NCBI RefSeq assembly: GCF_000020225.1
Contig: NC_010655.1
Location: forward strand, 1,620,001 to 1,652,000
Source: Akkermansia muciniphila ATCC BAA-835
Lineage (GTDB): Bacteria > Verrucomicrobiota > Verrucomicrobiia > Verrucomicrobiales > Akkermansiaceae
Reading direction: 5' to 3'
Length of the DNA: 32,000 nucleotides
The position numbers were made by a program, and so were the translations under genes. Shown here in pieces: positions 2,288 through 23,739 of this stretch (the first letter of the stretch is position 1; every line of letters starts with the position of its first letter). The notes under the pieces are model-generated. The model was not told where the DNA came from. It saw only the letters and a program-made list of their open reading frames with translations, and searched no databases.

Positions 2288-2288
2288 C

Positions 2289-5270: not shown

Positions 5271-5275
5271 TAAAA

Positions 5276-6488: not shown

Positions 6489-6498
6489 GCTTGGTGTA

Positions 6499-6536
6499 TT
6501 TACATATCAATATATCATGATATAATAATATGTAAA
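6499..6536. promoter_or_regulatory. 38-bp nested near-perfect palindrome in the divergent region upstream of terS (candidate operator or cos/pac-associated site)
   Basis: TTTACATAT-CAAT-ATATCATGATAT-AATA-ATATGTAAA. The outer 9-bp arms and the inner 12-bp core are perfectly symmetric. It sits in a 58-bp AT-rich intergenic gap. Confidence 0.5.
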
Positions 6537-6546
6537 GAAGGGAATA

Positions 6547-7050
6547 ATGGCAGGGATTTCACAGGCGGAACTTGCCCGGCAATTGGGCGTCAATAAAAGC
6601 ACGATCACGTACCACGTGAAGCGTGGTCTGACGCATGCGCAAATCCGGGAGCTGATTGAAGCCAGGAGGAAGGAAAATCCAATTGCTGAACCTGCTTCTC
6701 CAGAAATTGGGAAAAACGCTCCGGAGGAAGGGGTAGCGGAACTGAGAAAAAGGAAACTTGCTGCGGAAATTACCTACAAGAATTTGCAGGCTGAACAGGC
6801 CCGCGTGAAGCTTGAAAAGGATAAGGCCCGGCTGGTGGACATGGAAGATGTGAATGAGCTTGTCGTACATCTGGCCAGTATTACCAAAGGCGTTCTCCAG
6901 GCATTTGAAAATAAACTGCCGGGGAAGATGGAAGGATTGACGGCTGCGGAAATGGTTCCCATGCTGCGGGAGGAAATCAAGGCCGCTCTGTATTCCATTG
7001 CGGAAGAATCCAGGGCCCAGATCAAGATAATCAGCCGGGCGGAACAATGA
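6547..7050 (+). CDS. Terminase small subunit (N-terminal HTH)
   Basis: N-terminal HTH MAGISQAELARQLGVNKSTITYHV followed by coiled-coil. ATGA overlap with the large terminase gene. Confidence 0.6.
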   Translation: MAGISQAELARQLGVNKSTITYHVKRGLTHAQIRELIEARRKENPIAEPASPEIGKNAPEEGVAELRKRKLAAEITYKNLQAEQARVKLEKDKARLVDMEDVNELVVHLASITKGVLQAFENKLPGKMEGLTAAEMVPMLREEIKAALYSIAEESRAQIKIISRAEQ

Positions 7051-8744
7051 GAGACGTTGAAAAGGCTGCCGGATTTCTGAATCTTTTCGCGGATAACGTA
7101 TCCGCTGGAATGGACGTGGAGCCGATAGAATGGATACGTGAAAACGTGGTAGACCAGCAATCGGCGCGGTCTACCCATATTGATTTTACGTTGAGCCCGT
7201 TTCTGCTGGAACCCATTGACAAATTCCTGAATGACGGCACGGTCAGGCACATTAACCTGATGGCTCCCACCGGTTCCGGAAAGTCGACATTGTTCGTCGG
7301 CTTGCTTAATTACCTCATTGCCAATGATGCGGGGAATACCTTGGTCGCTTTCCAGAATGAACAGGAAACCTCTGATTTCGCGGAAACGAGGCTTTTTCCC
7401 ACATTCCGGGATAATAAGGCTTTAAAAAACTTGCTGCCGAAGAAAAGGCATGCGGCCAGGAAAACGGAGATTCTTTTTCCGCACATGAACTTGTGGATGG
7501 TCTCCGCTACCAAGGGGCAGTTGCAGTCGAAGTCCTGCCGGTATTTGATTGGTGATGAAATGTGGGCGTGGGAAAAGGGAATGGTCCGGGAGTTCCTGGC
7601 CCGCCACCATGATCGGTTCAACCGTAAAATCCTGATGGTTTCCCAGGGAGGGGACAAGGGGACGGACTGGGTTGACGAGTACGGAAAGGGCCGCATCCAC
7701 CATTACCATTGGCAATGCCCCGGCTGCCAGGGATGGAATGCCTATGACTGGCGGGATGTCATTTACAGCAAAGAAGAAAATATTGATTGGGAACGTTTTA
7801 AGGAATCCGTCAAAATGGTTTGTCCCCGGTGTTTGCACGAAATAGAGGATACTGTTCACAACCGGCGCCATCTGGCCGGCGGCGGCAAGTACGTGTTTTC
7901 CGGCAATACGAGCGCCTTGCCGGAGATCGTAAGCTACAATTTTAATGCTTTGGCCTGTTACTGGGTATCATGGGCGGATTTGGCCGTGGAATGGATCCTG
8001 GCCAATAAAAAGAAGAGGAACGGGGATATAGAACCGCTGAAAAAGTTTATCCAGAAGCGGCTTGCTCAAAACATTGTGGATTTGGGCGAGAAAGACGACG
8101 TGTTGAAAATCCCGCTCACGGCGGAAAGCATGGAGGGGTACGCCGTGGAAAACGAACGGGCGCGCTTCTTAACGGTAGATGTCCAGAAAGGGCACTTTTG
8201 GCATACTGTTTACGGCGTGGATGCCGGAGGGGCTTTCCATTTACTTTCAGAGGGGCGTCTTGAAACGTTGGAGGATATTGAACGTAAACAGGCGGAGTTT
8301 AACGTGCCTGATCATTGCGTTGCTTTGGACTGCGCTTTTGATACGGATGCCGTGCGGAAGATATGCGGGCTTCATCACTGGTTTTCCATGAATGGGACGG
8401 TCAAGGAAGAATACGTGCATAAAATCAGGGGGCGGGGGATTAAATTGATTTATGCGCCTCTTGAGCGGCACATGGTGGAGGGGATTCAATGCCTTCATTT
8501 CAACTTTTCTTCCCAGCGGGCGAAGGACGTTCTTGCCGCGCGGATTAAATCGGGGCATTTCAAGGTTCCCCATGATGTTTCTGCCGAGTACATCAAGCAG
8601 ATGCAGGCTGAAAGCAAACAGGAGTCCATAGACAAGCGCACGGGGAGGGTTTCTCTCAAATGGCTTGCGTCCGGTAATAATTCCCACATGTGGGACTGTT
8701 CCTGCATGGCGGTGATTTTTGCCATGATTCACCGGATGATTTAA
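7047..8744 (+). CDS. Terminase large subunit, GpA (lambda-like) type
   Basis: 565 aa. Walker A NLMAPTGSGKST, Walker B-like CRYLIGDEMW, and paired Cys motifs CPGCQGW...CPRCLHE typical of GpA-family terminases. Confidence 0.8.
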   Translation: MRDVEKAAGFLNLFADNVSAGMDVEPIEWIRENVVDQQSARSTHIDFTLSPFLLEPIDKFLNDGTVRHINLMAPTGSGKSTLFVGLLNYLIANDAGNTLVAFQNEQETSDFAETRLFPTFRDNKALKNLLPKKRHAARKTEILFPHMNLWMVSATKGQLQSKSCRYLIGDEMWAWEKGMVREFLARHHDRFNRKILMVSQGGDKGTDWVDEYGKGRIHHYHWQCPGCQGWNAYDWRDVIYSKEENIDWERFKESVKMVCPRCLHEIEDTVHNRRHLAGGGKYVFSGNTSALPEIVSYNFNALACYWVSWADLAVEWILANKKKRNGDIEPLKKFIQKRLAQNIVDLGEKDDVLKIPLTAESMEGYAVENERARFLTVDVQKGHFWHTVYGVDAGGAFHLLSEGRLETLEDIERKQAEFNVPDHCVALDCAFDTDAVRKICGLHHWFSMNGTVKEEYVHKIRGRGIKLIYAPLERHMVEGIQCLHFNFSSQRAKDVLAARIKSGHFKVPHDVSAEYIKQMQAESKQESIDKRTGRVSLKWLASGNNSHMWDCSCMAVIFAMIHRMI

Positions 8745-8767
8745 GCGCAACGGGCGCGCACTAGTAT

Positions 8768-10327
8768 ATGATGATTCTGAGTCAGGCAGCCCCGTTTGAC
8801 ATGGCCACTACCAGCGGCATTGCCCAATCGGTGACGCTTCGTTTTGTGGACGGTGCCGGCGCCGCAAAAGATATTTCCGGCCATGAGTTCCGTTGTGCTG
8901 TCCGCGGCCCTGGCGCCGCCGCCATCAAATGCGAGCCTGTAGACGCCAATACGGCTCTTTTGTCGTGGAGCCCTCTCAAGGCCGGAACGCATGCTTATGA
9001 CCTTTTCATGACCTCTCCTGATGGGGCGGAGCGCCCCTTGATTAAAGGGGAAATCCAGGCCGCTTCCCGTGTTACGCCGCCGGGCAGTGAAGATGTGGTT
9101 ACAATTGGAGACGTGAAAATCATGATCCCTGACGCCGCGGAAGGAGAGGTGAAAATTATCGATCCTTCCGTGGATGCTGCTGAACGGGCTGAATCCGCTG
9201 CTCAAGAAGCCTCAAATGCCAGGAACGATGCTCAGAATGCCAAAAAAGAAGCGGAAAAATCAGCAGAAAGTGCCGCGACATCCGCCACGGCGGCCCAACA
9301 GGCCCTTGAGGCCATTCCGCAGGTGGACGCATCCGGCAACATGACGCTGGACGGCAATATCACCGCGGCGGGAGGCACGTTTGACGGGGCCGTCAACGCC
9401 AATGGAGGTATCAACATCCCGCTTGCCGCGGGGGCGCTGACCGATATGTCAGCGGTCAACCGCCTTTACGCCGCCGGGCTGGCTGCCGTAACTGATGCTT
9501 TTTCCGTCAGGTGTTATCCGCTCCCGGCGAATTGCTCGTCTTCCAACGGGACGGTTTTCAAAACAGACAAGGAACCCAATTCCCTTTATTTCAACGTCCC
9601 GGCTAATTCCGCCTTTACCGTGAAATGCGGCCTCGTGACCAACGCGAGGCCCATGCACAATTATTCCAGCATCCGGGGGTGGGTGGCTCCGGTGCGCCTT
9701 CCGGCTGTCAGCGCTAAATTCACGGCCAGGTTCGGACAGATGACAACGGTCGTGCGCATGGGAAGGGACAGGGACGCATTTACGCTGGTGCCGGATCAGG
9801 CGGCGGGCGGCTACAGGATTGGGGAGATTATCGATATTACGTTTGATCATGTCCGGGACGCGGCCGCAGGGGGGTATCACATTCGTGTCCGGGAGATTTA
9901 TTATTCCAATGCCGAGCAGAAATGGAAGATGAAGACGACGCAGGCCCTCGCGCCGGAGACGTCTTCCAATTCCGGTTATCCCGTCTGCGTGTACGCGGTG
10001 GTTTACGAGCAATACCAGGACGGAGGATATGATACCGAAGACAGGGGAGCGTTGTGGCTGCTGCATGGCGGGAATTCCACCCGCGGCTGCGTCAAGATCG
10101 CCACGGTGAGGGGAGTCCATTGCTTTGAGAATATTTATCCCTTTTCCGGATATTATCTTGATATGGAGAATGCCAACAGCTGGGCGTTGGCCGGAGCGTT
10201 CCTTCCGGCGACGATGCACTTGCATTGCAATAATGTCAATCCGGCGTATTACGGGTTTTCCTCCATGGAGAGCAATATCATTGTCTCCGAGGCGGTGGAG
10301 GATTTTGTTGACCCGGAAGCCGAATAA
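8768..10327 (+). CDS. Tail fibre / receptor-binding-like protein
   Basis: 519 aa. Has the Ala/Ser/Glu-rich helical segment common in phage fibres (AAERAESAAQEASNARNDAQNAKKEAEKSAESAATSATAAQQALEAI). This is followed by GNMTLDGNITAAGGTFDGAVNANGGINIP...DMSAVNRLY and a unique C-terminal domain. Confidence 0.6.
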   Translation: MMILSQAAPFDMATTSGIAQSVTLRFVDGAGAAKDISGHEFRCAVRGPGAAAIKCEPVDANTALLSWSPLKAGTHAYDLFMTSPDGAERPLIKGEIQAASRVTPPGSEDVVTIGDVKIMIPDAAEGEVKIIDPSVDAAERAESAAQEASNARNDAQNAKKEAEKSAESAATSATAAQQALEAIPQVDASGNMTLDGNITAAGGTFDGAVNANGGINIPLAAGALTDMSAVNRLYAAGLAAVTDAFSVRCYPLPANCSSSNGTVFKTDKEPNSLYFNVPANSAFTVKCGLVTNARPMHNYSSIRGWVAPVRLPAVSAKFTARFGQMTTVVRMGRDRDAFTLVPDQAAGGYRIGEIIDITFDHVRDAAAGGYHIRVREIYYSNAEQKWKMKTTQALAPETSSNSGYPVCVYAVVYEQYQDGGYDTEDRGALWLLHGGNSTRGCVKIATVRGVHCFENIYPFSGYYLDMENANSWALAGAFLPATMHLHCNNVNPAYYGFSSMESNIIVSEAVEDFVDPEAE

Positions 10328-10356
10328 GAAACGACGGAAGAAACGACTACCGAAGA

Positions 10357-10773
10357 TTGAGCATGAATAATTCAGAGATACAGATACAGTTTCCCCGGCC
10401 CGGCGAGTGGGGAGAATTCACCCTGACGGCCATTTATCAGGACAAGGGCGGTTATAGACCTCCGGCGCGCTATACGCAGGACGAGATACCAGCGGAACAG
10501 ACCCCGGCCATGCAGGCCGTCGTTGCCTCTCTGGTGGGCATGGGTGAGGACTGGCAGGCGGTGCAGGTGTGGGCACGGCTGGGAAAAGATGTCCTGACCC
10601 TTGCGGAGGATGGTGCCTATACAATGATTGATGCGGTATCTTTGACCGTTGAGGCCGTCCATGCGGAGACCAAAGGCCGCAGGATTTTTACAGTCTCGGA
10701 CTACCCGGCTTTTATCCTGACCGACCCCGCCGCCGTGGAGTTTTTTCAAGCACTTCACTACCTCTACCAATAA
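10357..10773 (+). CDS. Hypothetical phage protein (follows the fibre gene)
   Basis: 138-aa ORF on the same strand, closely spaced. No recognisable motif. Confidence 0.45.
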   Translation: MSMNNSEIQIQFPRPGEWGEFTLTAIYQDKGGYRPPARYTQDEIPAEQTPAMQAVVASLVGMGEDWQAVQVWARLGKDVLTLAEDGAYTMIDAVSLTVEAVHAETKGRRIFTVSDYPAFILTDPAAVEFFQALHYLYQ

Positions 10774-10785
10774 CAACATAATCAT

Positions 10786-11250
10786 ATGACTACTAATAAT
10801 CAATGCAATCATGCCGAGGCTATCGCCAGAGAAATGCACATGTACTATGCAGCCCAGGCACACAATGAGTCCAACACTCCAATCCCTCACTGGGCAGACC
10901 TGACGGAAAACGATCAACAAGGATGGATTGCCGTAGCAAATACTGCCCTCCCGATCATCGGTAAGCATGCGCTGGAAGATGTTCGGGCCTATCTCGGCCT
11001 CAAGGCTTCCGGCGCGTCCACTTGGTGGAAAAAGGCCCTATATGCAGCCGGAGCGGTTATCGCTGGCGCCATCCTTGGCGGCTTGGGAATGTCCCTCTCC
11101 GGCTGCGGTCATTCCGTGGACGTAACGCCGGGCCGCGCCGAGGTATGCAAAGACGGCTCCTGCCTCGTCATTGAGCAGGGACATATCTCCTATTCCCAGG
11201 CCCAGCCGGAAACGGACGTTCCGCCCGTTGTTCAACCTCTGAAAAAGTGA
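10786..11250 (+). CDS. Membrane-anchored phage protein at the head of the lysis cassette
   Basis: 154 aa. Soluble N-terminal domain, then a single hydrophobic helix ALYAAGAVIAGAILGGLGMSLSGC ending in a lipobox-like LSGC. Short Cys-containing tail. The gene ends 4 nt before the holin-like gene. Confidence 0.45.
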   Translation: MTTNNQCNHAEAIAREMHMYYAAQAHNESNTPIPHWADLTENDQQGWIAVANTALPIIGKHALEDVRAYLGLKASGASTWWKKALYAAGAVIAGAILGGLGMSLSGCGHSVDVTPGRAEVCKDGSCLVIEQGHISYSQAQPETDVPPVVQPLKK

Positions 11251-11254
11251 AGCC

Positions 11255-11533
11255 ATGACCGGATCTGTTGTCAACGCGGGCCTGCTGGGGGCTAATGCCC
11301 TGTCCGTGATTGCGTCCGTCACGTCAGGCAACCCCTTTTTGGAGTACATTCAAAACGGGGCCAGCGTGGCCGCGGTCATGGGAATTTTTCTGTGGCGGGA
11401 AATGAAACGGGCGGAACGTTATGAGCGGCTCTATGACGAGGAACGCAAAAAACGCATTGATGCGGAAAATAAATGTTCCGGCTGCGAGTTCACGCGCAAG
11501 GCGCATGAAGAATTCCTGGACAACAGGGACTAG
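11255..11533 (+). CDS. Holin-like small membrane protein
   Basis: 92 aa. Two hydrophobic helices (VVNAGLLGANALSVIASV, GASVAAVMGIFLW) and a highly charged C-terminus (REMKRAERYERLYDEERKKRIDAENK). Lies directly upstream of the endolysin. Confidence 0.55.
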   Translation: MTGSVVNAGLLGANALSVIASVTSGNPFLEYIQNGASVAAVMGIFLWREMKRAERYERLYDEERKKRIDAENKCSGCEFTRKAHEEFLDNRD

Positions 11534-11558
11534 TTTCAACTGTAAAGTTTTTCTTACA

Positions 11559-11577
11559 AGTTCTAACCAGTTCTAAC
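11559..11577. repeat. Tandem direct repeat AGTTCTAAC x2 (10-bp period) between the holin-like and endolysin genes
   Basis: AGTTCTAACcAGTTCTAAC, read directly from the sequence. Confidence 0.6.
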
Positions 11578-11594
11578 AGAAATAATTGATAACT

Positions 11595-12176
11595 ATGAAT
11601 CCTACAGAAAGAAAGATGGCTGCGGCCATCCTCCGGTTTGAAGACAGCCGCGTCACCGGGCCTGATTCCCTGCGCGTTTCCCGCCTTCCCGCCGCCGACA
11701 AGGGCGGCAAGTGGGAGATTTGCGGCATTTGCAACGGTATTGAACCGGACGTGTTTAACAGGTTGAAGGCCCTGCTGGATGCCGGAAGACGTGAAGACGC
11801 CTGGGAAGGTTGTCTTCAGTACGTCCTGGATAATACCGCCGCCGTGCGTTCCTGGCTGGGTTCTGACGCTTTTCCTGGCGTTGAATTCATCCTGCGGGAC
11901 CATTTTTTCAATTCCGGGAGCAGGAATACCGGGAAGATCCTGCAACGTGCGCTGAATATTCACGGTGCCGGGCTCACGGTGGACGGGATTGTCGGCCCCA
12001 AGACCCGGCAGGAACTACAGGACCAGCTGGCCGCCACGGGTGAAGCGGTGTTCCTTATCGCTCTGCAGGAGAAGCGTCAGGCGTTTTACCGTTCGTGCAA
12101 GCAGTTCCCGACCTTCGGGCGTGGCTGGTTGAACCGCTGCGACGATGCGTTCAGCGTGGCCCAGGAGCTTGTTTAG
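11595..12176 (+). CDS. Endolysin, GH108-type muramidase with a C-terminal peptidoglycan-binding domain
   Basis: N-terminal ILRFEDSRVTG...DKGGKWEICGI resembles the GH108 catalytic region. C-terminal LQRALNIHGAGLTVDGIVGPKTRQEL...FGRGWLNRC resembles PG_binding_3. ATG at 11595 is preferred over the TTG at 11586. Confidence 0.7.
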   Translation: MNPTERKMAAAILRFEDSRVTGPDSLRVSRLPAADKGGKWEICGICNGIEPDVFNRLKALLDAGRREDAWEGCLQYVLDNTAAVRSWLGSDAFPGVEFILRDHFFNSGSRNTGKILQRALNIHGAGLTVDGIVGPKTRQELQDQLAATGEAVFLIALQEKRQAFYRSCKQFPTFGRGWLNRCDDAFSVAQELV

Positions 12177-12196
12177 GGTTATTTGTTTCTATCCAC

Positions 12197-12222
12197 GCCC
12201 CCTATTTGAGGGGGCTTTTTTT
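12197..12222. terminator. Rho-independent terminator (bidirectional position between endolysin and hicB)
   Basis: GCCCCCT-atttg-AGGGGGC followed by TTTTTTT. Lies between convergent genes. Confidence 0.75.
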
Positions 12223-12242
12223 GTTGCCTGGGCAAAATAACG

Positions 12243-12686
12243 TCAGGAATTGATCAATTCAGGATGCTTTTCAATAAGGTCAAGCAATTTTGCGGAAGGG
12301 CCGCAGGGGCGCCGCAAGCCGTGTTCCCATTTGACCAGCGTGGAAGGACTGACTCCCAGCACGGCGGCAAAATCTTTCTGACTCATTCCCTGGCTTTTCC
12401 TTAACCGCGCAATGCTTTTTTCATTGCCTGTTTCGCGGAAAGGTGACGGAGAAATAGCTATGGACCGGGGCTGGGGGAGTTCCATTCCCTTTTCCAGATA
12501 ACGTTCAATATACATTTCCGCCACTTCCTGAAGGTTGCGGTTGACTTCTTCCAGGGTTTCCCCGTGGGTGCAGTCCTTTTCAAAATCAGGCAGGGAACCG
12601 ATGTAGCAATTATCTTCATCGCTCCACCGGATGAAACGGCTGTATTTCCCGGCAAGCGCCTTCATGTCCTGTTCAGTCATTTTCAT
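12243..12686 (-). CDS. hicB: HicB-family antitoxin fused to a C-terminal XRE-type HTH
   Basis: N-terminal HicB pattern (RWSDEDNCYIGSLPDFEKDCTHGETLEEVNRNLQEVAEMYIERYLEKGMELPQP). C-terminal HTH (LRKSQGMSQKDFAAVLGVSPSTLVKWEHG). Lies 29 nt downstream of hicA. Confidence 0.8.
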   Translation of the reverse strand: MKMTEQDMKALAGKYSRFIRWSDEDNCYIGSLPDFEKDCTHGETLEEVNRNLQEVAEMYIERYLEKGMELPQPRSIAISPSPFRETGNEKSIARLRKSQGMSQKDFAAVLGVSPSTLVKWEHGLRRPCGPSAKLLDLIEKHPELINS

Positions 12687-12715
12687 AGTTGTTTTTCTTG
12701 GGGTTGCAAGGGAGC

Positions 12716-12925
12716 TTACGCTCCCTTGCTTTTTGCCTCTTCTATCTTCTCCCTGACGTGCTTGACCAGATAGGGCTTGGCATCGTCTCCATCATGCCCG
12801 CAGATGGTCGCTACCGTACCGGAGGCCCGATGCTCATACTGACGGTGGGAACCTTTGCCGCGGCCCGTATTGTCAAAGCCCGCCTTGCGAAGATCGGCAA
12901 CTAGTTGTCGTATCTTAGGAGGCAT
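12716..12925 (-). CDS. hicA: HicA-family mRNA interferase toxin
   Basis: MPPKIRQLVADLRKAGFDNTGRGKGSHRQYEH...ICGHDGDDAKPYLVKHVREKI matches the HicA/YcfA pattern. Start trimmed from 12973 to the MPPKIR methionine. Confidence 0.8.
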   Translation of the reverse strand: MPPKIRQLVADLRKAGFDNTGRGKGSHRQYEHRASGTVATICGHDGDDAKPYLVKHVREKIEEAKSKGA

Positions 12926-12941
12926 GCCTACAATATAGTTG

Positions 12942-12979
12942 CACAATGTGAAAATAGCAAGGATTGTTTTCACATTGTG
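12942..12979. promoter_or_regulatory. 13-bp perfect inverted repeat upstream of hicA (candidate operator)
   Basis: CACAATGTGAAAA-N12-TTTTCACATTGTG, 17-54 nt upstream of the hicA start on the minus strand. Contains the ATGTGA/TCACAT half-site also seen at 13.8 and 15.5 kb. Confidence 0.55.
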
Positions 12980-13145
12980 TCATTTTTTGCTGAGGCAGAA
13001 CTATTGTCTTTCTTAGGATACCCAAGAAAAATATTCTTATTTCTCTTGTCTTGGCTTGTCTTTAGACAATTCCTTGGGACAAAGGGAAGATGGGAGTTTC
13101 ATTTTATCCATGGAAATAGGACGGAGATATACTGGTTTTCTGTCA

Positions 13146-13742
13146 CTATGTGTGATTAATTCCTTGTTCGACTTTCTCGTTTGTCTGTTGTTGATTGGCT
13201 GTTCTGGCATGGCTGTTTGATATGGCTTCAAAGGAAAGATATACAGTACTTGCTAATGCGAACAAGAATAAAAGAAATGCTGCGTTGTTGCAATATTTTA
13301 CTATTTTATCCATTTTATTTGCTTCTTCATCACTTTTGGCAGCTTGTTTTTCATCTCCATTTTGTTGATGAGCTATTTTGTTAGCGTACTCACGATGAAG
13401 CGTTGCGCCAGCAAGGAATGAAATCATTACACAAGAAACAACTGCTGCCCACAAAATCAGTGATATACGAAAATGTATGGTAGAAAGTATTATATTTTCT
13501 CCTTTTAGCAGATATATTAGACCAATGGCGGAGGATGAAATTGTTATAGTTGTTTTGTCCCAATTGGCTTGCGCTCGTGATGAAACTTCCAACGCACGAA
13601 GCCTTTCTTGTTGTTGTATTTTATAGTTTTCTATAGTAAGAGTATTTTCAAAATCACAGCGAATTTTTTCAGTTTCATCTATTTGTTGCTTTGGGGCTTG
13701 TTCGGGGTTATTTCCCGTTGTAAAGGATAGATGGAAATTCAT
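13146..13742 (-). CDS. Orphan 3-TM membrane protein with an N-terminal helical/coiled region
   Basis: 198 aa. Polar N-terminus (~60 aa, QQQERLRALEVSSRAQANWDK), then TM segments ITISSSAIGLIYLL, ISLILWAAVVSCVMISFLAGATL and AAFLLFLFALASTVYLSF, with a charged helix between TM2 and TM3. Sits in the strongly AT-rich region. Confidence 0.6.
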   Translation of the reverse strand: MNFHLSFTTGNNPEQAPKQQIDETEKIRCDFENTLTIENYKIQQQERLRALEVSSRAQANWDKTTITISSSAIGLIYLLKGENIILSTIHFRISLILWAAVVSCVMISFLAGATLHREYANKIAHQQNGDEKQAAKSDEEANKMDKIVKYCNNAAFLLFLFALASTVYLSFEAISNSHARTANQQQTNEKVEQGINHT

Positions 13743-13842
13743 AATAAATATTTGCTAGTTCAATGAATAAATATAAAATTAAGAACTTTTTCTATTTGCT
13801 TTCTCTTACTATATTTTCACATTCATTTTTATTTAATAAAGA

Positions 13843-14412
13843 TTATTTTTTGCGTTTTTTGATGAATAAACGGATAATAGGCATCGCAAAAAGTATCGAA
13901 AAAATTAGAAATACGATGCCCAAATGTCCAAACCCCGAAAGTCTTGATGTGCTGAAGAAGCATAGTCCGCTAACTACCAGACAAAAAATACCTCCTATGT
14001 AACGACAAATAGTGCGGTCTCCTACTACATGAGCCCAATAAGCAATAAATAGGTATCCCAGAATGGCAGGGAAAAGAGACAAGATAACAGTAGATGGTTC
14101 TCCGTATTTCCTAAAACAAGGTGTGGCTATAAGAGGAAGTGAGATAATCATAAAGATAGTGCCAACTCCTGTCCATATAGTCGCTGAGATTGAAGTATCA
14201 ACATTCTTTTTTCTCTGATACAGTTGAGGCGCTACTTCTACCGGAGTGGAAAAAAGAGCGCCATAAGTGACCCATGCGGGAGCCCCTTCCGGGCAAACAG
14301 GAGTCTGGTTATCAATTGTTTCTTGGGATTTTAACGCCTTCAGATATTCAACAGGATAAGGCCCTGACACTTCTCCATTCAGAGATATAAAATAATTCGG
14401 CATAGTTGGCAT
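13843..14412 (-). CDS. GYF_2 (DUF4339)-like N-terminal domain fused to a ~4-TM membrane domain
   Basis: 189 aa. YFISLNGEVSGPYPVEYLKALKSQETIDNQTPVCPEGAPAWVTYGALF fits the GYF_2 pattern (Y..g..GP...l..l...i...t.v..eG...W). Four hydrophobic segments follow, then a KKRKK tail. Confidence 0.6.
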   Translation of the reverse strand: MPTMPNYFISLNGEVSGPYPVEYLKALKSQETIDNQTPVCPEGAPAWVTYGALFSTPVEVAPQLYQRKKNVDTSISATIWTGVGTIFMIISLPLIATPCFRKYGEPSTVILSLFPAILGYLFIAYWAHVVGDRTICRYIGGIFCLVVSGLCFFSTSRLSGFGHLGIVFLIFSILFAMPIIRLFIKKRKK

Positions 14413-14439
14413 TTTATTATCTTTTGATCAAGATACAAC

Positions 14440-14463
14440 AAAAAAGCCTCATGACCTGGAGGC
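14440..14463 (-). terminator. Weak rho-independent terminator-like hairpin on the minus strand
   Basis: Minus strand reads GCCTC-caggtcat-GAGGC followed by TTTTTTG. The stem is only 5 bp. Located 225 nt downstream of the 252-aa gene and 28 nt upstream of the GYF-TM gene start. Confidence 0.35.
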
Positions 14464-14687
14464 CAAGGAGGGATCAGATGGAGACAGTTCTTGGACACAG
14501 GGTTCAAGGAGGTCAAGCCTTCTTCCACCTGTTCAGGTTTTCCCGTCTCTTTGAAGCCACTTCTTGATGTAACTCTTCGAGTGTATTCGTTAAAAATATC
14601 ATACCAAAAAAGAGAAAACAAGAGAGAAGGCTTCTGGAAATGGATCAAAAAGTCCAGCAGTTGTTAAGCTTGGTTGACAGGGGAATT

Positions 14688-15446
14688 TTAGAATGGGATT
14701 TCGTCATCCATATTGTCCCATGGGAAGAGAGAGCCTTCTTCTTTTTTTAAAAAATTATCTAAGTCTTTATTAATACGTTCTTCTGCCCATTTTCTCAACA
14801 CGCTTGCAACCCATTCGCTGAAATTTGAAAAACCATCTATTTTGGCAGCTACCCTCGCATACAGAAGTGGGAAATTATCACTTACTACAACTCCCCAATA
14901 TTCATCTGTTGGAATGTCAGATAAGGCAACCATTGAGGCTTCAGCTTGCTCCATTGTAAGAATGTTAAATTTGATATTTTTCTTTTTACATTTTTCCTTC
15001 TCTTGAAGCAGTAGTTCACGAGTTTTGCTTGTAAGTATATTAGTAATTATTGATATGTGACTTCTATTAATAGTAATCTCTGATTGTGGATTATAAAAAA
15101 CATTCTCTATTTCAGCATTTAATGCATATGCCATCAATGAGGCATCAGCTTCATCAACCACCGCAATATAAAATTGTTTCTTGGGAATATTATACGCCTT
15201 TGGAGATGGATCGAAATCCGGATTTATAAAATGATAGCGATTGTCTTTATGATAATTTACCTGAAGTGCATCAATACTATCAACATTCTCTTCAATAATA
15301 GGATTCCCTCCGTAAAACCAATTTTTAACTGTTCCTTCTGACTTCCCCAACCAGCTAGCTAGCCACTTCATAGAAAGACCTCGGTCTCGAAGCCAAGCTC
15401 TGACATTCTGCTTATAGATGGCTTGAGGATCTTTTTCTTCATCCAT
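14688..15446 (-). CDS. Repressor-like protein: N-terminal HTH plus an unknown ~190-aa C-terminal domain
   Basis: 252 aa. N-terminal VRAWLRDRGLSMKWLASWLGKSEGTVKNWFYG is HTH-like. Divergently transcribed from the excisionase-like gene across a repeat-rich 115-bp region. AT-rich. Confidence 0.6.
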   Translation of the reverse strand: MDEEKDPQAIYKQNVRAWLRDRGLSMKWLASWLGKSEGTVKNWFYGGNPIIEENVDSIDALQVNYHKDNRYHFINPDFDPSPKAYNIPKKQFYIAVVDEADASLMAYALNAEIENVFYNPQSEITINRSHISIITNILTSKTRELLLQEKEKCKKKNIKFNILTMEQAEASMVALSDIPTDEYWGVVVSDNFPLLYARVAAKIDGFSNFSEWVASVLRKWAEERINKDLDNFLKKEEGSLFPWDNMDDEIPF

Positions 15447-15457
15447 AGATTTATATA

Positions 15458-15560
15458 GTGTGATTATATGTGATATGTCAAGCCATGTGCGAGTAATTTT
15501 TTCACATGCTAAAATATTTTGGTGGACTTTATGTGAGATTATATGATATCACATCACACA
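15458..15560. promoter_or_regulatory. Divergent switch region with repeated ATGTGA/TCACAT half-sites
   Basis: ATGTGA at 15468-15473 and 15531-15536. TCACAT at 15502-15507 and 15549-15554. The 24-bp unit ATGTGAGATTATATGATATCACAT spans 15531-15554. Direct repeat GATTATATG(T)GATAT at 15462 and 15537. Confidence 0.6.
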
Positions 15561-15561
15561 T

Positions 15562-15774
15562 ATGAGCAACATCAGCAATCTTACTGCTACGGAACTAGCA
15601 CAGTCACTCCGAGTACATAAAAACACCGTTTCTATGTGGGCTCGCATGGGGATGCCCTGCATCTACATTGGCAGAGTCACGGAACCTCGCCGCGGAGCTC
15701 GCCCTCGTTACGATCTGGAAAAGGTGAAAGCCTGGCTGGAAGAACGGAGCAAGAAAAGAACTTCCGTGGCTTGA
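15562..15774 (+). CDS. Excisionase/AlpA-like (HTH_17, MerR-superfamily) DNA-binding protein; Cro- or Xis-like role
   Basis: 70 aa. LTATELAQSLRVHKNTVSMWARMGMPCIYIG...RYDLEKVKAWLEER fits the excisionase-type HTH pattern. Confidence 0.6.
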   Translation: MSNISNLTATELAQSLRVHKNTVSMWARMGMPCIYIGRVTEPRRGARPRYDLEKVKAWLEERSKKRTSVA

Positions 15775-15878
15775 GTAAGCCTCTCGTCCGACATGCGGCC
15801 CATGTCGAAAACAACGAAGGCCACCTGCGCCAACAGGTGACCTTTAATAACGGGCGTGAGCCCAACTAACGTAAGTAA

Positions 15879-16721
15879 ATGATTAATAATATCATCAACC
15901 ACAAAACGCAAGGCGAAAATGCCTTGATGCCGCAGAACGGTGTTGTACCGTTCCAGAACGAAACCCTGAACTGCACGGTCCGCGCCGTGGTGAAGGACGG
16001 GGAACCCTGGTTTGTCGCAAAGGATGTTTGCGATGCGCTGGAAATTGGTAATGTATCCCAAGCCGTCAGCTACTTGGATGAAGATGAAAAGAGCAACATC
16101 ATTACTAATGATATTGCTCAAAACGGAGGTCGCGCACCTCTCATCATCAATGAATCCGGACTTTACTCTCTAATTCTCCGCTCCCGCAAGCCGGAGGCGA
16201 AGAAGTTCAAGAAGTGGGTGACCGCTGAGGTCCTTCCCTCCATCCGGAAGCATGGTGTGTACGCCACCGGAGAGAAGCTGGAAGAAATGCTTGCCGACCC
16301 GGATACCATGATTCTGACGCTTCAGGCATTGAAAGCTGAACGGGAGAAGAGAAAAGCTCTTGAAGCAAAAGCTGCGGAAGATGCTCCCTATGCATATTTC
16401 GGACGATGCGTGGAAGTTTCCGAGGGCTGCATCCTGATTGGAGAATTTGCCAAGATTCTCGCTCAGAATGGAATGGAGACAGGACAAAACCGTTTGTTTG
16501 AGTATCTACGCAATGAAGGCATTATGGGGAGGCACGGCAATCGTCACAATGTTCCAGCCCAAGAGTATATTGAAGCTGGGTATTTCCGTCTCACTTACCG
16601 GGTTATTCAGCGTTCCGACGGTTCACAGCAGTCCAAACCGACACCGTATTTGACACCCCGCGGTCAAATATGGTTGATGAAGCGTTTGGGATTAACCATT
16701 GAGAATATACCTGCTGCCTAA
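15879..16721 (+). CDS. Phage antirepressor, Bro-N domain plus KilAC/ANT C-terminal domain
   Basis: Bro-N-like VPFQNETLNCTVRAVVKDGEPWFVAKDVCDALEI...INESGLYSLILRSRKPEAKKFKKWVTAEVLPSIRKHG. C-terminal YFGRCVEVSEGCILIGEFAKILAQNGMETGQNRLFEYLRNEGIM is KilAC-like. The start could be 15927 (MPQNGVV). Confidence 0.75.
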   Translation: MINNIINHKTQGENALMPQNGVVPFQNETLNCTVRAVVKDGEPWFVAKDVCDALEIGNVSQAVSYLDEDEKSNIITNDIAQNGGRAPLIINESGLYSLILRSRKPEAKKFKKWVTAEVLPSIRKHGVYATGEKLEEMLADPDTMILTLQALKAEREKRKALEAKAAEDAPYAYFGRCVEVSEGCILIGEFAKILAQNGMETGQNRLFEYLRNEGIMGRHGNRHNVPAQEYIEAGYFRLTYRVIQRSDGSQQSKPTPYLTPRGQIWLMKRLGLTIENIPAA

Positions 16722-16772
16722 GATTTTACATCTGGTGCGTGTATTCGAATTTGGCTCAACCAGCAAAAATTT

Positions 16773-16796
16773 CCCCGTTTCCTTTTGGAAACGGGG
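16773..16796. terminator. Strong hairpin terminator between convergent genes
   Basis: CCCCGTTTCC-tttt-GGAAACGGGG, a perfect 10-bp stem. The minus-strand reading is followed by AAATTTTTG. Confidence 0.7.
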
Positions 16797-16880
16797 ACTT
16801 GACCTGAGTTCTGCTGCCTCAATCTAAATCCAAGTTATGAAGACAACAACCCTACATCACCACAGAATCCTCAATGAGGA

Positions 16881-17228
16881 TTATTCTCCCGCGTCTTCCA
16901 GCGCAGCACTACGGATGAACTCCTCAATAGTTTGCCCGCTGATTTGTGCGGCCTTGGAAATGAGTTTTAAATCATCTTCCGAAAGAGGAACCGCTACCGC
17001 TGCAACACCATTCAATATAGGGACAGAGGATGCTGTCTTGGCCGCTTCTTCTCCTTGCCTATTTATTTCTTTCCGGATTAGCTCAAGCTTGGCCGGAGGA
17101 ATTATGCCTTTAGATCGAAACCAATCATCCACGGACGCCTTTTTAACAAAGCATTTCTGAGCCAACCATTCACGGCTTTTTTTATTTTTCTTTAGCCAAG
17201 ATTTGATGAGTTCCTTTTCATTCTCCAT
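16881..17228 (-). CDS. Small regulator: HTH paralogous to the 252-aa protein N-terminus plus a C-terminal DUF1778/TacA-like RHH segment
   Basis: Start trimmed to MENEKELIKSWLKKNKKSREWLAQKCFVKKASVDDWF. This aligns ungapped with AWLRDRGLSMKWLASWLGKSEGTVKNWF of ORF 14688..15446 (W-L, S, W-L-A, V, W-F conserved). C-terminal LSEDDLKLISKAAQISGQTIEEFIRSAALEDA resembles the DUF1778 antitoxin motif. Alternative start at 17255. Confidence 0.55.
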   Translation of the reverse strand: MENEKELIKSWLKKNKKSREWLAQKCFVKKASVDDWFRSKGIIPPAKLELIRKEINRQGEEAAKTASSVPILNGVAAVAVPLSEDDLKLISKAAQISGQTIEEFIRSAALEDAGE

Positions 17229-17238
17229 GAGGAGAGTA

Positions 17239-17324
17239 TGAGGAAAAATCCTCATTATGCAAGTAAAATATTTGATGTCTTTCCGCAAAAATAGATTGAC
17301 TAGTGATGAAAAATCCTCAATATG
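17239..17324. promoter_or_regulatory. Second divergent control region with TGAGGA/TCCTCA palindrome and a 17-bp direct repeat
   Basis: TGAGGA-AAAA-TCCTCA at 17239-17254. GAAAAATCCTCAtTATG at 17243-17259 is repeated as GAAAAATCCTCAaTATG at 17308-17324. A related perfect palindrome AATCCTCA-A-TGAGGATT lies at 16866-16882. Confidence 0.55.
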
Positions 17325-17515
17325 GAAATATGAACGCGACAGAAAAACACGAAGAACGGATTTCCCTTCCCGCATCGGTCCTCCTCTTAGAGGAGGGAAT
17401 CGCCCGGGGATTGGGAATAACGATAGGAGAACGCATGAGAGCCTTGGCAATAGCGAAAGCTCAAAGAGTGCTCACCTCGAAGAAGAACGTTGAACCCAAA
17501 AAGCCCGCAGCCTAA
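17306..17515 (+). CDS. Small possible ribbon-helix-helix protein
   Basis: ERISLPASVLLLEEGIARGLGITIGERMRALAIAKA has a strand-helix-helix pattern. The start is ambiguous (GTG 17303, ATG 17306 or ATG 17330). Confidence 0.4.
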   Translation: MKNPQYGNMNATEKHEERISLPASVLLLEEGIARGLGITIGERMRALAIAKAQRVLTSKKNVEPKKPAA

Positions 17516-17582
17516 TGGAAGAAGCCCTGATTGACGAATTTATCCGGCTCGGCTGGCACGAACTTTAATCTGCACTGTGACA

Positions 17583-18020
17583 ATGAATTCACATGAAATG
17601 TTCCACCGGACAATCAGTCACGGCCCATATGCCGGGATGGTGGAAACAATTACAAATAAAAATTGTAAATTCGCGGTCCGGTGCTGTTGGTGCAGTTACC
17701 CCTCCGAAAGGGGTAACACTTACTACTCCGTTGTTACGGACAGTCATGGAGCATTGCATAGCCTTGATTTCCTGTGCGCTTCCTGTGCCCGTGAACACAT
17801 CAATGGTATTCCGGACAGGGCAGGGAAGAGCCCCTATCAGTCCCTTGATCCCCGGAAGGAACTTCGCCTCCTGCAAGCCCGCAAGAATAGAGACAGGGCA
17901 CGCCGGCACCAGGCCGTGACGCATCTGCTCTTTTGGCTGGTAATCGCTTTTGCCTGTGTGGCTGTGGCGGCCTTCATCGTCTGCGCCTCTTACACAATAA
18001 CAAAAATCGTCTTAGGATAA
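17583..18020 (+). CDS. Cys-rich protein with a C-terminal TM anchor, hypothetical
   Basis: CKFAVRCCWCSYP...FLCASCAREH (zinc-ribbon-like Cys pairs). Basic segment, then hydrophobic LLFWLVIAFACVAVAAFIVCASYTI. The stop overlaps the next start (TAATG). Confidence 0.5.
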   Translation: MNSHEMFHRTISHGPYAGMVETITNKNCKFAVRCCWCSYPSERGNTYYSVVTDSHGALHSLDFLCASCAREHINGIPDRAGKSPYQSLDPRKELRLLQARKNRDRARRHQAVTHLLFWLVIAFACVAVAAFIVCASYTITKIVLG

Positions 18021-18373
18021 TGGACGCCAATGATCAACGTTTGATAGAAGGGTTGTTTGCCCGCATTGACCGCCTGGTTGCGATCATGGAAGGGAAATAC
18101 TGCCCTGAAACAAGCGGTGAAACCTGGCTGCGTGCGGAAGAGCTTCTCAAACTGCCCCAGTTCCGGCATCGCAAGGGCCGCGTATGGCTCTATGAACTGG
18201 CGAAGACGTCACCGGATATCATGAAAAAGGACTGTCTGCCGCATCAAAAGCGGGGCGCCACCCTCTGGTGCGTGGAACGTATTTCCAAGGCCATGAAAGA
18301 GAATACCGCAAAAATCCTTTCTTTTGACGGTTTATCAAAACCGTCCCGCCCTCACGGCATGAGGAAACAATAA
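18020..18373 (+). CDS. Hypothetical early phage protein
   Basis: ORF trimmed to MDANDQRLIEGL, whose ATG overlaps the upstream stop. No motif recognised. Confidence 0.45.
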   Translation: MDANDQRLIEGLFARIDRLVAIMEGKYCPETSGETWLRAEELLKLPQFRHRKGRVWLYELAKTSPDIMKKDCLPHQKRGATLWCVERISKAMKENTAKILSFDGLSKPSRPHGMRKQ

Positions 18374-18395
18374 CCATTAGAAAATACATAATACA

Positions 18396-18656
18396 ATGAT
18401 TACAAGCAATATTGATACTGCATCTAAACCTGTTCAGGCAAAGCCTTTTGATACAGGCGACAGGGTAATGTTAAATTCCCAGTTAATTATCACCATGCCT
18501 AACCGTGGAAGGACTTATCGTTTTTCTCCGGAAGATGAATTTGTCGTGGTGCGGCGCAAGGACGAGAGCAATTTCTACGTCGCCTTTATCAAGGCTCCCT
18601 GGCTGGGCGTCTTTGAGTTGAATGACGAAGGCTTCTCCTTGTGCGACGAAGACTAA
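18396..18656 (+). CDS. Hypothetical early phage protein
   Basis: 86-aa ORF on the same strand with protein-like composition. Confidence 0.4.
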   Translation: MITSNIDTASKPVQAKPFDTGDRVMLNSQLIITMPNRGRTYRFSPEDEFVVVRRKDESNFYVAFIKAPWLGVFELNDEGFSLCDED

Positions 18657-18736
18657 CGATTTCTTCACGCCTCTGTCCGGGGCGCGTCGATTGAACCTGA
18701 TTAAATAATAATAGTTAATTGATAATAAATAAGATT

Positions 18737-19426
18737 ATGATCGCTATGAATACGACTACAGCACTACTGGTAAACGCAGAACCCCTCTCCCGCGGCAACG
18801 GGAAAGGGGCGGATGTTGTGAATAATGGCAAGACGGCTAATCCTATCATTGCTCACAAGCCAGTAAGTACGACAGACGGGAAGCCCTGTCAACCGGCAAA
18901 GGCTGCCAGAACGGCCAAGAAGCCTGCCGCCCCCAGGAAGAAGCGGTACGATGAAGAGGATTTGATAGCCTTCGGAGAGAATGCTTTCATGCTCCGGGGC
19001 GCTGCAGAAGCCATTTTGGACATGTTCCATGCCTTGTTCTATGCCGATGACAACCAGGAAGAGGTTGTCAATGGCGTGAAGGGAGCCTTCGATGAGGCCG
19101 CCATTCTTCTGCAAAATGCAGCGAATGCGTTTGAAGAGAAGATTCCTTTCAAGGTTTTGGACAAGAGGCGGAAGACTTTTTTTGCCCTGACGGAAATAGA
19201 TGAAAAAGACAGCGATGTTCTTGCCGCGATTACTGCTATCAATTCCGGTTTTATCCAGTGGGATGAAGGAAGTGTTTACGTGAAGGCGACACGTTGCGAA
19301 ATGGCAACTCTTCTGCTTAACCGCGCATTGGAAAGCGCCAAGAAGTCCTTCTACCTTGCCGAAGACTCAACATCAAACCCCGCCCTTGCCGCAACGCTTG
19401 CTTCCATGAAAGGAGGGCACAGGTGA
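18737..19426 (+). CDS. Hypothetical early phage protein with a basic Pro/Ala/Lys-rich N-terminal linker
   Basis: ATG at 18737 preferred over TTG at 18719. KPCQPAKAARTAKKPAAPRKKRYDEED followed by a helical domain. The stop overlaps the next start. Confidence 0.5.
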   Translation: MIAMNTTTALLVNAEPLSRGNGKGADVVNNGKTANPIIAHKPVSTTDGKPCQPAKAARTAKKPAAPRKKRYDEEDLIAFGENAFMLRGAAEAILDMFHALFYADDNQEEVVNGVKGAFDEAAILLQNAANAFEEKIPFKVLDKRRKTFFALTEIDEKDSDVLAAITAINSGFIQWDEGSVYVKATRCEMATLLLNRALESAKKSFYLAEDSTSNPALAATLASMKGGHR

Positions 19427-19662
19427 TGAAGGTTGTTACCCTGAAGATTCCCATCTCACAATCTATTTATGATACCGCCAAATTTGCGGTGGAAGAAGGG
19501 GTGGCGAGAAGCGAAGAAGAGTTCCTGGCCCGCATTGCGCTCAAAGGAATTTTCTCTGATCTTTTTGAAGACGTGCAACCGCACTTGGACGACTATTTGG
19601 ACGAGATGGTTAACAACGTCTATCCCGAGGAACTTGCCGGGGAAGAAAGGAGGACTGTATGA
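19423..19662 (+). CDS. Small hypothetical protein, possibly RHH-like
   Basis: VVTLKIPISQSIYDTAKFAVEEGVARSEEEFLARIALKG has a strand-helix-helix pattern. Translationally coupled on both sides. Confidence 0.4.
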   Translation: MMKVVTLKIPISQSIYDTAKFAVEEGVARSEEEFLARIALKGIFSDLFEDVQPHLDDYLDEMVNNVYPEELAGEERRTV

Positions 19663-19901
19663 CTTCTGAAGAGGGAACAGACGTTCTTCTGAAGGTTTAC
19701 GAAAGTCTTTTCTTACAAGAAAGCAATCTGGTTAAGCTTCTGGAAAATCATTCGGGAGGCCTTATTGAACGAGACCGGATAATGTCCATCATGCGGAGAC
19801 TGAAACGTTTACGTGCTGATACTTACGGTTTGGTTACGCAAAGGTGGCTTAATGCAAAACTTCATGGAAAGGAGGGGGGCGATGAAGCACCTTTATATTG
19901 A
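19659..19901 (+). CDS. Hypothetical early phage protein
   Basis: 80-aa ORF with an ATGA overlap with the upstream gene. Confidence 0.4.
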   Translation: MTSEEGTDVLLKVYESLFLQESNLVKLLENHSGGLIERDRIMSIMRRLKRLRADTYGLVTQRWLNAKLHGKEGGDEAPLY

Positions 19902-20196
19902 CCAATCAGGCCGCGGCGTCCGTGCTGGAGTTGAAAATGAGGCAGTTTGCTTTCCTATGGAAACACCAGAACAGGAAGAACGCCGCTGCATTCAGGAGCT
20001 TTGCCGCATTAAGGGGGAATTGGGGCGTACAGGCCGCTACGGCGTGTATTTTGACCTTACAGGCCCGGAAATAGAGTTTTGGGTAGAAGAGTTCGGCAAG
20101 CCGGGCTTTCTGATCTGCATCAAACACCAGGACGCCGGCACGGTGCTGGATTACGTCCGCAAGAGGTGTGATGAACTACGTTTGATTGAACCATAG
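19882..20196 (+). CDS. Hypothetical early phage protein
   Basis: Start trimmed to MKHLYIDQSG, preceded by the strong SD-like GGAGGGGGG. Overlaps the upstream ORF by 20 nt. Confidence 0.5.
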   Translation: MKHLYIDQSGRGVRAGVENEAVCFPMETPEQEERRCIQELCRIKGELGRTGRYGVYFDLTGPEIEFWVEEFGKPGFLICIKHQDAGTVLDYVRKRCDELRLIEP

Positions 20197-20199
20197 AAC

Positions 20200-21009: not shown

Positions 21010-21030
21010 CCCTCAAAAAGAGAAACCATC

Positions 21031-22344: not shown

Positions 22345-22371
22345 AACATGATATCACTATTTAAGGTAGTG

Positions 22372-23622: not shown

Positions 23623-23739
23623 GATTTAGTGGTATCAATAGTGTGCTCTTTTTGCAAGTTGTATCACCATGTTTCAAGATGTTTTTGTGTTTTCTGAAAT
23701 TTCGTAAGAGCTTTGTTTAGAGTGGAATAAAATCAAAAA

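Follow-up and report, generated by a model that had tools for sequence, protein, structure and literature searches.

What kind of gene arrangement lies between the lysis genes and the immunity region of a prophage in Akkermansia muciniphila ATCC BAA-835? In the 32,000-nt stretch of chromosome that we analysed (contig NC_010655.1, positions 1,620,001 to 1,652,000; hereafter the window), this accessory slot holds, in order on the minus strand, genes for a 252-amino-acid (252-aa) helix-turn-helix (HTH) protein, a 189-aa protein that joins a GYF_2 domain to four transmembrane (TM) helices (GYF-4TM) and a 198-aa membrane protein, followed by hicAB. An earlier note on this DNA had read the first three as a single cassette resembling lambda cI-rexA-rexB, in which a repressor is coupled to membrane proteins that exclude other phages. 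We find instead that the slot holds four independently exchanged modules, not one system. We consider it reasonably likely that the slot is a mosaic of four autonomous units, flanked by the immunity region on one side and the end of the lysis operon on the other, with the two membrane proteins acting as exclusion or defence factors.

The mosaicism is observed directly. We compared the slot across eight sister-prophage architectures, namely types T1 (the window) to T7 and a contig designated L035 (Table 1; L numbers denote loci, S24 the Peptidase_S24 domain). T4 and T7 have GYF-4TM but no 198-type gene; T2, T3 and T5 have a 198-type gene but no GYF-4TM; and T6 has the 252-aa gene without GYF-4TM or a close 198-type gene. 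The hicAB cassette is absent from the T5 prophages L020 and L036. Homology blocks delimited by BLASTN break between these units. Because the four modules assort independently, a single Rex-like three-gene system is not supported; co-occurrence in other prophages, which the earlier note had proposed as a check, shows that the 252-aa, GYF-4TM and 198-aa genes do not stay together. Nor does any of the 252-, 189- and 198-aa proteins have homology to RexA or RexB (PADLOC at E <= 1, PHROGs at E <= 0.1), or match any exclusion family in these two collections.

The anatomy of the region is otherwise much as the note had described it. Gene calls with Pfam and PHROGs identify the window as an A. muciniphila prophage, that of a temperate siphophage, and open reading frame (ORF) calls, Pfam and hydropathy bear out the minus-strand ORFs, the GYF_2 domain with four TM segments and the HicAB domains. 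The block flanked by the lysis cassette and immunity region is indeed foreign in composition and lies on the lysogeny side: G+C is 36.7% at 12990-15560, compared with 51.6% at 1-12200 and 50.7% at 15562-23700. The AT-rich block does not extend to hicA (55.7%) and hicB (50.5%), which lie outside it. The three orphan genes are adjacent on one strand, with G+C fractions of 0.36-0.41. This prophage is widespread in A. muciniphila: the 252-aa protein recurs at 100% identity in many of its genomes, among them several complete chromosomes, and over 2,000 assembly blocks are indexed with the identical protein. In BLAST-type look-ups, homologues of the 252-, 189- and 198-aa proteins come from Akkermansia throughout, with distant relatives of the 198-aa protein reaching other taxa. 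No match was found among 50,697 deposited phages, either by megablast of 12200-15600 or by tblastn of the three orphan proteins, and a scan of GTDB species representatives with two family alignments (A1 and A3) found no relative; the cargo of the slot is therefore strain-variable.

The cargo of the sister slots suggests what the membrane proteins might do. According to PADLOC and Pfam, sisters carry PD-Lambda-5_A (E = 4e-26), a TIR-TM protein (E = 6e-46) and PDC-S31/DUF2971 (E = 5e-15) at this position, together with a Dcm methylase, Vsr and HEPN_RES_NTD1+RES, besides HicAB. The slot thus has deviant G+C, keeps its position among related phages while its genes are present in some and absent from others, and carries recognised defence genes in some variants: it is an accessory (moron/defence) hot spot. 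The sister defence genes map to L035 453-4014, L028 7355-7978, L020 2122-2946 and 4873-5973, and L029 7815-8666. Morons on the repressor side and defence hot spots in prophages are already well established, and the moron concept goes back to Hendrix. Fixed position, interchangeable cargo, deviant G+C and gene-hugging breakpoints are features that the slot shares with them. It differs in its host, Akkermansia (Verrucomicrobiota), for which the literature searched held no described example, and in its GYF_2-4TM and 198-aa 3-TM families, which are absent from the defence catalogues searched. The hot spots of P2 and P4 were reportedly described by Rousset et al. in 2022. The literature on Akkermansia prophages, DUF4339/GYF_2 and superinfection exclusion yielded nothing on these genes. 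The recognised defence genes at the same position make a conflict role for the two membrane proteins plausible and, although by association only, are the best argument for it. The proposal of defence or exclusion is to that extent reasonable, although not as the work of one system.

Table 1. Features of the window, architectures of the slot in sister prophages, and homology blocks (positions in the window, 1 being its first nucleotide; RHH, ribbon-helix-helix).
Feature	Position	Strand	Remarks
Tape measure	167-2287		
GpA terminase	7047-8744		
Lysis genes	10357-12176		holin-like, spanin-like, endolysin
Accessory slot	between lysis genes and HTH_17 + Ant		
Intrinsic terminator of convergent lysis (endolysin) operon	12197-12215	+	T-run on + strand
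hicB antitoxin, 147 aa	12243-12686	-	C-terminal HTH_3; HicB_lk_antitox 32.7 bits (cut-off 27), HTH_3 44.8 bits (cut-off 23)
hicA toxin, 69 aa	12716-12925	-	ATG at 12925; Pfam HicA_toxin 46.6 bits (cut-off 27); phrog_353
Intergenic region	12926-13145	-	left edge of hicAB cassette at ~13024
198-aa protein	13146-13742	-	polar helical N-terminus; no named family
Spacer, 17% G+C	13743-13842	-	holds breakpoint at ~13806-13810, GYF cassette vs 198-aa block
GYF_2 + 4-TM inner-membrane protein, 189 aa	13843-14412	-	probable start 14403 (186 aa)
Relic spacer, 275 nt	14413-14687	-	between 252-aa gene and GYF gene
252-aa regulator	14688-15446	-	N-terminal HTH at ~1-66; C-terminal domain without assigned family; disordered acidic tail DDEIPF
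Divergent control region, 252-aa gene / HTH_17 gene	15447-15561		six TGTGA/TCACA half-sites
HTH_17 small regulator, 70 aa	15562-15774	+	
Bro-N/ANT antirepressor (Ant)	15879-16721	+	phrog_130 Ant, E = 7e-87
115-aa HTH + RHH protein	16881-17228	-	DUF6290/RHH matches; no S24 domain
Early genes including DnaB	21031-22344 (DnaB)		
Integrase	22372-23622		then host DNA, ~60% G+C
T1 (window)			252, GYF-4TM, 198, hicAB
T2			285/289-aa HTH protein, 229-aa signal-peptide protein, 199, hicAB
T3			S24 repressor, 230-aa secreted protein, 192, hicAB
T4			S24 repressor, GYF-4TM (66% identity), 115-aa HTH-RHH, other genes; without 198-type and hicAB
T5			S24, DUF2971/PDC-S31, GYF-BRCT, GYF-TM, 161, HEPN_RES_NTD1+RES, 193, endolysin; without hicAB
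T6			115-aa repressor, 233-aa distant 198-family member, Ant, 252 (86% identity), 112-aa HTH, 96, TIR-TM, integrase
T7			S24, GYF-4TM (84% identity), another GYF-TM, 115, DUF2971, 308
L035			PD-Lambda-5_A, 323-aa partner, Dcm methylase, Vsr, GYF-4TM, 192, hicAB
BLASTN block	11582-13810		endolysin through 198-aa gene; 91-93% identity to T2/T3
BLASTN block	12163-13024		hicAB; absent in T5
BLASTN block	13850-14426		GYF ORF only; 71-80% identity to T4/T7
BLASTN block	14539-16000		252-aa gene, control region, HTH_17; 86% identity to T6

GYF-4TM can be assigned to a domain family. Its residues 7-49 match GYF_2 (PF14237, DUF4339) with 29.4 bits, above the Pfam cut-off of 25.8 (E = 7e-7), and its homologues, all from Akkermansia, carry precomputed PF14237 annotation. 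The internal start given in Table 1 is likely because these homologues begin at MPNYF. Hydropathy gives four TM segments, and the positive-inside rule predicts that the GYF domain and the KKRKK C-terminus face the cytoplasm. The gene is under purifying selection, with a ratio of nonsynonymous to synonymous substitution rates (dN/dS) of 0.09-0.42. Because the borders of the cassette shared with T4 and T7 hug the ORF, it brings no conserved promoter. It is, however, the first gene after a repressor-type gene in T1 (252-aa) and in T4 and T7 (S24 repressors of 216 and 263 aa, ~85 nt upstream), and for this reason we infer that its expression in the lysogen is most likely by read-through.

Small membrane proteins encoded just downstream of a repressor-type gene and in the same direction are familiar from prophages. 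Repressor-linked exclusion genes include lambda cI-rexA-rexB, P22 sieB, lactococcal Sie2009 and gp30-31 of the cluster N mycobacteriophage Butters. The slot resembles them in this layout, as does GYF-4TM in holding its position behind three different repressor-type genes, and the co-directional position suggests that the membrane genes are expressed in the lysogen. GYF_2 itself recurs in the slot in at least four forms, 4TM, 2-3TM, a 215-aa TM protein and a soluble GYF_2+BRCT protein (L020 3042-3758 and 3783-4295, L029 6624-7271, and window 13843-14412), which hints at a common partner.

How GYF-4TM came to its place can be read in the spacer that separates it from the 252-aa gene. In T2 and T6 a terminator stands directly 3' of the 252/285-type gene; in the window spacer the alignment shows it degraded. 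The spacer conserves an extended -10 element, TGgTATGAT (14606-14598), and still has the opening 16 codons of an HTH gene whose intact counterpart is found in T6 (L028 6552-6890), with 11/16 residues identical by tblastn and the start changed from ATG to ATA (14586-14584). To judge from these sequences, the GYF cassette evidently replaced the relic HTH gene. Just upstream of the GYF gene, at 14464-14445, the spacer also contains a weak terminator-like hairpin with a T-run. Because hairpin and relic spacer separate the two genes, a single operon from the 252-aa gene to GYF is not evident. Folding of 14404-14700 showed nothing out of the ordinary (z = -0.98).

The 198-aa protein belongs to a wider family. 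Hydropathy supports two of the three TM helices that had been counted, TM2 (residues 93-113) and TM3 (151-174), as strong segments; TM1 (~64-80) is weak and Ser/Thr-rich. Residues 114-150 form a charged cytoplasmic helix. An exhaustive hidden Markov model search of 1.84 billion representatives recovered only 18 family proteins, including relatives of 143-233 aa from other taxa. No Pfam family covers any of these relatives. The family build is a polar N-terminal helix, TM, TM, charged helix, TM, and the Ser/Gly-rich first TM helix carries the motif FDKxLLTLSxGALG. An extended-family profile run against PDB sequences matched only a designed coiled coil.

Is this family a variant of a known membrane effector? 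The resemblance to SLATT/DUF4231 proteins suggested in the earlier note found no signal in Pfam, PADLOC, PHROGs or NCBIfam; SLATT_1-6 and DUF4231 gave no match in 15 family members even at E <= 10, and with no profile match SLATT was rejected. No cyclase/SMODS or reverse transcriptase (RT) partner was found among the neighbours in the window and 30+ loci. Weak PADLOC matches came from distant members: PycTM with 4 of the 15 (E = 0.0018 at best), and the 2TM effector models of the cyclic-oligonucleotide-based antiphage signalling system (CBASS) with E = 0.0012-0.0027; the window protein matches neither. The likeness to PycTM, 2TM and SLATT lies in size (145-230 aa), in a build that sets paired TM helices after a polar helical N-terminus, and in distant members found in defence or mobile contexts. 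The differences are a third TM helix and the lack of a cyclase, SMODS or RT nearby. Among the distant members, one lies 5 bp downstream of an MmeI-type restriction-modification (R-M) gene, one beside DUF4145, DUF6731 and an integrase, and one between two integrases; the 233-aa distant member of T6 lies 30 nt downstream of the primary repressor.

The 198-aa gene evolves fast. Its dN/dS is 0.25-0.72 (~0.5), compared at similar dS with 0.07-0.11 for hicB and 0.10-0.22 for the endolysin gene, and it reaches ~0.8-1.2 in residues 114-150. Against the T2/T3 alleles, dS rises from ~0.06 (residues 1-85) to ~0.31 (residues 86-198), a jump that suggests intragenic recombination near residue 85.

The HTH of the 252-aa protein is weakly matched by PHROG repressor families (E ~0.003), its N-terminus resembles those of sister-prophage S24 repressors and of the T2 285-aa protein by BLASTP, and the AlphaFold2 (AF2) model shows a confident helical bundle at residues 1-66 with an overall predicted local distance difference test score (pLDDT) of 50. 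The gene has a dN/dS of 0.27. These results give weak support to the HTH assignment of the earlier note, and the protein is probably not the primary immunity repressor. Pfam finds no Peptidase_S24 domain, which sets the protein apart from CI/LexA-type repressors. The 252/285-type gene strictly accompanies HTH_17 and Ant: T1, T2 and T6 have all three, and the types with an S24 repressor (T3, T4, T5 and T7) lack it. As a candidate for the primary CI it was ruled out by gene position and by its co-occurrence with Ant. We conclude from this analysis that it is probably the lysogen-side regulator of the adjacent HTH_17-Ant operon, which is transcribed divergently from it. Of the checks that had been proposed, PADLOC, like the scans with PHROGs and NCBIfam, yielded no more than weak HTH matches for the three orphan proteins, and Foldseek of the 198-aa AF2 model yielded only generic helical hairpins; the shallow-alignment model of the 252-aa protein was too poor for a structure search.

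On sequence grounds, the probable primary immunity repressor is the 115-aa HTH-RHH protein. Its gene sits at the position of the S24 repressor in sister prophages, divergent from the early operon, and it is closer than the 252-aa protein to the S24 repressors: BLASTP aligns it with those of L017 (33% identity over 115 aa, E = 3e-13) and L020 (52% identity over 48 aa). Among the sister prophages (L001, L010, L017, L005, L020, L028, L029 and the window), S24 repressor and Ant module are mutually exclusive. T1, T2 and T6 combine an S24-less 115/135-aa HTH-RHH repressor with HTH_17, Ant and a 252/285-type regulator, whereas T3, T4, T5 and T7 have an S24 repressor without Ant. This suggests one phage lineage with two alternative induction routes, by antirepressor or by autocleavage.

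The control region fits a regulator of this kind. Its 115 nt hold six TGTGA half-sites where 0.14-0.19 would be expected, with inverted and direct repeats, and the half proximal to the 252-aa gene is kept in L028. On the minus strand, TTGACA (15481-15476), an 18-nt spacer and TATATA (15457-15452) form a putative promoter for the 252-aa gene, with two ATCACA half-sites inside the spacer. With just 5 nt between the end of the -10 element and the ATG, the transcript is probably leaderless, as is that of lambda cI from PRM.

The whole arrangement recalls P22 immI (mnt / arc-ant), which we take to be a lysogen-type regulator divergent from a small regulator and antirepressor, with clustered operator half-sites between them. 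Gene order, the Bro-N/ANT domains, the six half-sites and co-occurrence in T1, T2 and T6 only are what the two have in common. However, both Akkermansia regulators (252 and 70 aa) are HTH-type and lack the ribbon-helix-helix homology of Mnt and Arc, and the 252-aa protein has a large C-terminal domain and an acidic tail like that of SSB, the protein that binds single-stranded DNA. The immI-like arrangement occurs only in prophages whose primary repressor is without an S24 autocleavage domain.

The 252-aa protein ends in NMDDEIPF (C-terminus at 14688-14720), its 86% relative (L028 5681-6439) in MDDEIPF and the T2 analogue (L001 7724-8581) in DEDDEIVF. Among the ORFs of the window and of every fetched locus, a tail of the DDEIPF type is confined to 252/285-type proteins. 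In the 252-aa protein, residues 235-252 have pLDDT < 50 and are predicted to be disordered. The ending comes close to DDDIPF, the conserved C-terminal hexapeptide by which SSB docks its partner proteins (PMC5872125). The tail of the 252-aa protein may be an SSB-tail mimic that ties control of ant to replication or repair proteins; if so, this coupling would be an S24-independent route to prophage induction.

The remaining module, hicAB, shows nothing unusual for type II HicAB: adjacent toxin-first genes, an antitoxin with a DNA-binding domain, and normal G+C outside the AT-rich block. Upstream of hicA, an inverted repeat with 17-bp arms (12941-12980) overlaps a promoter-like site, TTGCTA-17-TATATT (12960-12932), and is the probable HicB operator, judging by its sequence and place. 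With this candidate operator of its own, hicAB is an autonomous, separate insertion. An Rfam scan of 11500-18000 found no family; the inverted repeat gave a spurious sub-threshold match to mir-567. The minus-strand run had been thought to end at a terminator at 12197, but the T-run there is on the plus strand, so the terminator serves the convergent endolysin operon. Read on the minus strand, the hairpin is preceded by an A-run and followed by no U-tract, and is a hairpin only.

These data bear on four other explanations. That the 252-aa repressor, GYF-4TM and the 198-aa gene form one acquired operon of the cI-rexA-rexB kind has in its favour that A. muciniphila genomes very commonly contain the trio as a unit, that the genes share strand, adjacency and low G+C, and that L035 retains both GYF-4TM and a 198-type gene in the absence of the 252-aa gene. 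Yet each of the three occurs apart in T2-T7, breakpoints flank each ORF, and the relic gene and terminator-like hairpin stand between the 252-aa and GYF genes; moreover, GYF-4TM and the 198-type gene need not occur as a pair, and the HTH protein encoded upstream probably regulates ant rather than acting as CI. Such an operon is very unlikely. Hardly any credence can be given to the idea that hicAB has a third component in the membrane, the 198-aa protein. The two do adjoin in T1, T2, T3 and L035, within the common block at 91-93% identity, but in T5 (L020 and L036) a 193-aa homologue lies directly before the terminator and endolysin with hicAB absent. Their G+C is 0.36 versus 0.50-0.56, hicAB has its own inverted repeat and promoter-like site, and dN/dS differs ~5-fold.

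It is equally hard to believe that the AT-rich ORFs are chance or decaying filler. They are orphans of narrow distribution and low AF2 confidence, and the spacer 14413-14687 is a proven gene relic; nevertheless, the ORFs are intact in alleles that share 66-86% of their amino acids, and dN/dS is < 1; the GYF protein has a curated Pfam domain match, and distant relatives of the 198-aa protein occur in other taxa and share a conserved motif. Roles outside defence are unlikely too, although they deserve more serious thought: the two proteins might serve antiholin-like lysis timing or an envelope or lysogenic conversion that changes a surface property in the gut, or might tether a host factor to the membrane by the GYF domain. 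The slot adjoins the lysis cassette, the secreted 229/230-aa protein that T2 and T3 have in this position points to envelope-directed cargo in general, and neither membrane protein matches a defence family. But their genes are opposite in strand to the late/lysis operon, which already has holin-like, spanin-like and endolysin genes, the neighbours exchanged at the position are mostly recognised defence genes, and enzymatic domains are lacking. That neither protein has a role in virions or lysis, or a known family, agrees with the earlier note.

We therefore return to the mosaic of four autonomous units. In the lysogen, the 252-aa protein would be made from its leaderless-type promoter and keep ant silent, with the 115-aa S24-less HTH-RHH protein acting as primary repressor. 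GYF-4TM would be expressed by read-through from the upstream repressor-type gene, set a cytoplasmic GYF adaptor at the inner membrane and block a membrane-proximal step of the incoming phage, that is, superinfection exclusion. The 198-aa 3-TM protein would be a stand-alone membrane-acting exclusion or abortive-infection effector, and hicAB would work as an autonomous type II toxin-antitoxin cassette. The mechanisms suggested for these two membrane proteins (inner-membrane exclusion and a stand-alone effector) are quite possible, short of probable. It is doubtful that three further propositions hold jointly: that the 198/233-aa family are cyclase-less membrane effectors of prophages that act alone to block or abort infection, distant and simplified cousins of PycTM/2TM; that GYF_2-4TM is a repressor-coupled exclusion factor; and that the DDEIPF tail couples ant control to replication and repair.

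Several results count against this account. For the 198-aa protein, there is no Pfam, PHROGs, PADLOC or NCBIfam family; the AF2 model, from a shallow alignment, gives three long helices at pLDDT 63 with moderate confidence at residues 90-170 only; and Foldseek of that model returned generic helical hairpins from PDB and BFVD (best E = 0.14 and 0.03, respectively). Reversed-sequence controls give comparable, if weaker, matches to TM effector models (RTasSLATT 0.027, 2TM 0.034), informative contexts of distant relatives number only four, one of them a housekeeping neighbourhood, and the raised dN/dS could reflect relaxed constraint, not an arms race. The 189-aa protein has no PHROG, PADLOC or NCBIfam defence-family match and no Pfam match beyond GYF_2. 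The hairpin at 14464-14445 could block read-through into its gene, and in L035, one of the eight architectures, what lies upstream of GYF-4TM is an R-M/PD-Lambda-5 cluster ending in a convergent vsr. A consensus promoter scan of the AT-rich DNA found 11 sites, no excess over the 9.6 in shuffled sequence. Finally, layout is the one argument for a Mnt-like role of the 252-aa protein, an HTH protein, unlike the RHH protein Mnt.

A. muciniphila is a next-generation probiotic candidate whose phages and phage resistance are little known. The slot adds no new principle; in an under-studied host, it offers two uncatalogued cargo families and an unusual regulator. A hot spot with swappable cargo helps to predict strain-level phage sensitivity and to find defence genes of Verrucomicrobiota, and GYF_2-4TM and the 3-TM family can be tested cheaply as single genes.

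Two other genes deserve mention. The 154-aa protein of the lysis cassette (10786-11250) matches no Pfam family; it has a hydrophobic stretch ending in a lipobox-like LSGC and may be a spanin-type lipoprotein. The 229/230-aa protein of T2 and T3 (L001 9258-9947; L017 4974-5666), likewise without a Pfam or NCBIfam family, precedes the 198-type gene and begins with the signal-peptide-like sequence MNVKSIIATILIASSLMSSG, by which it appears to be another envelope-directed orphan in the slot.

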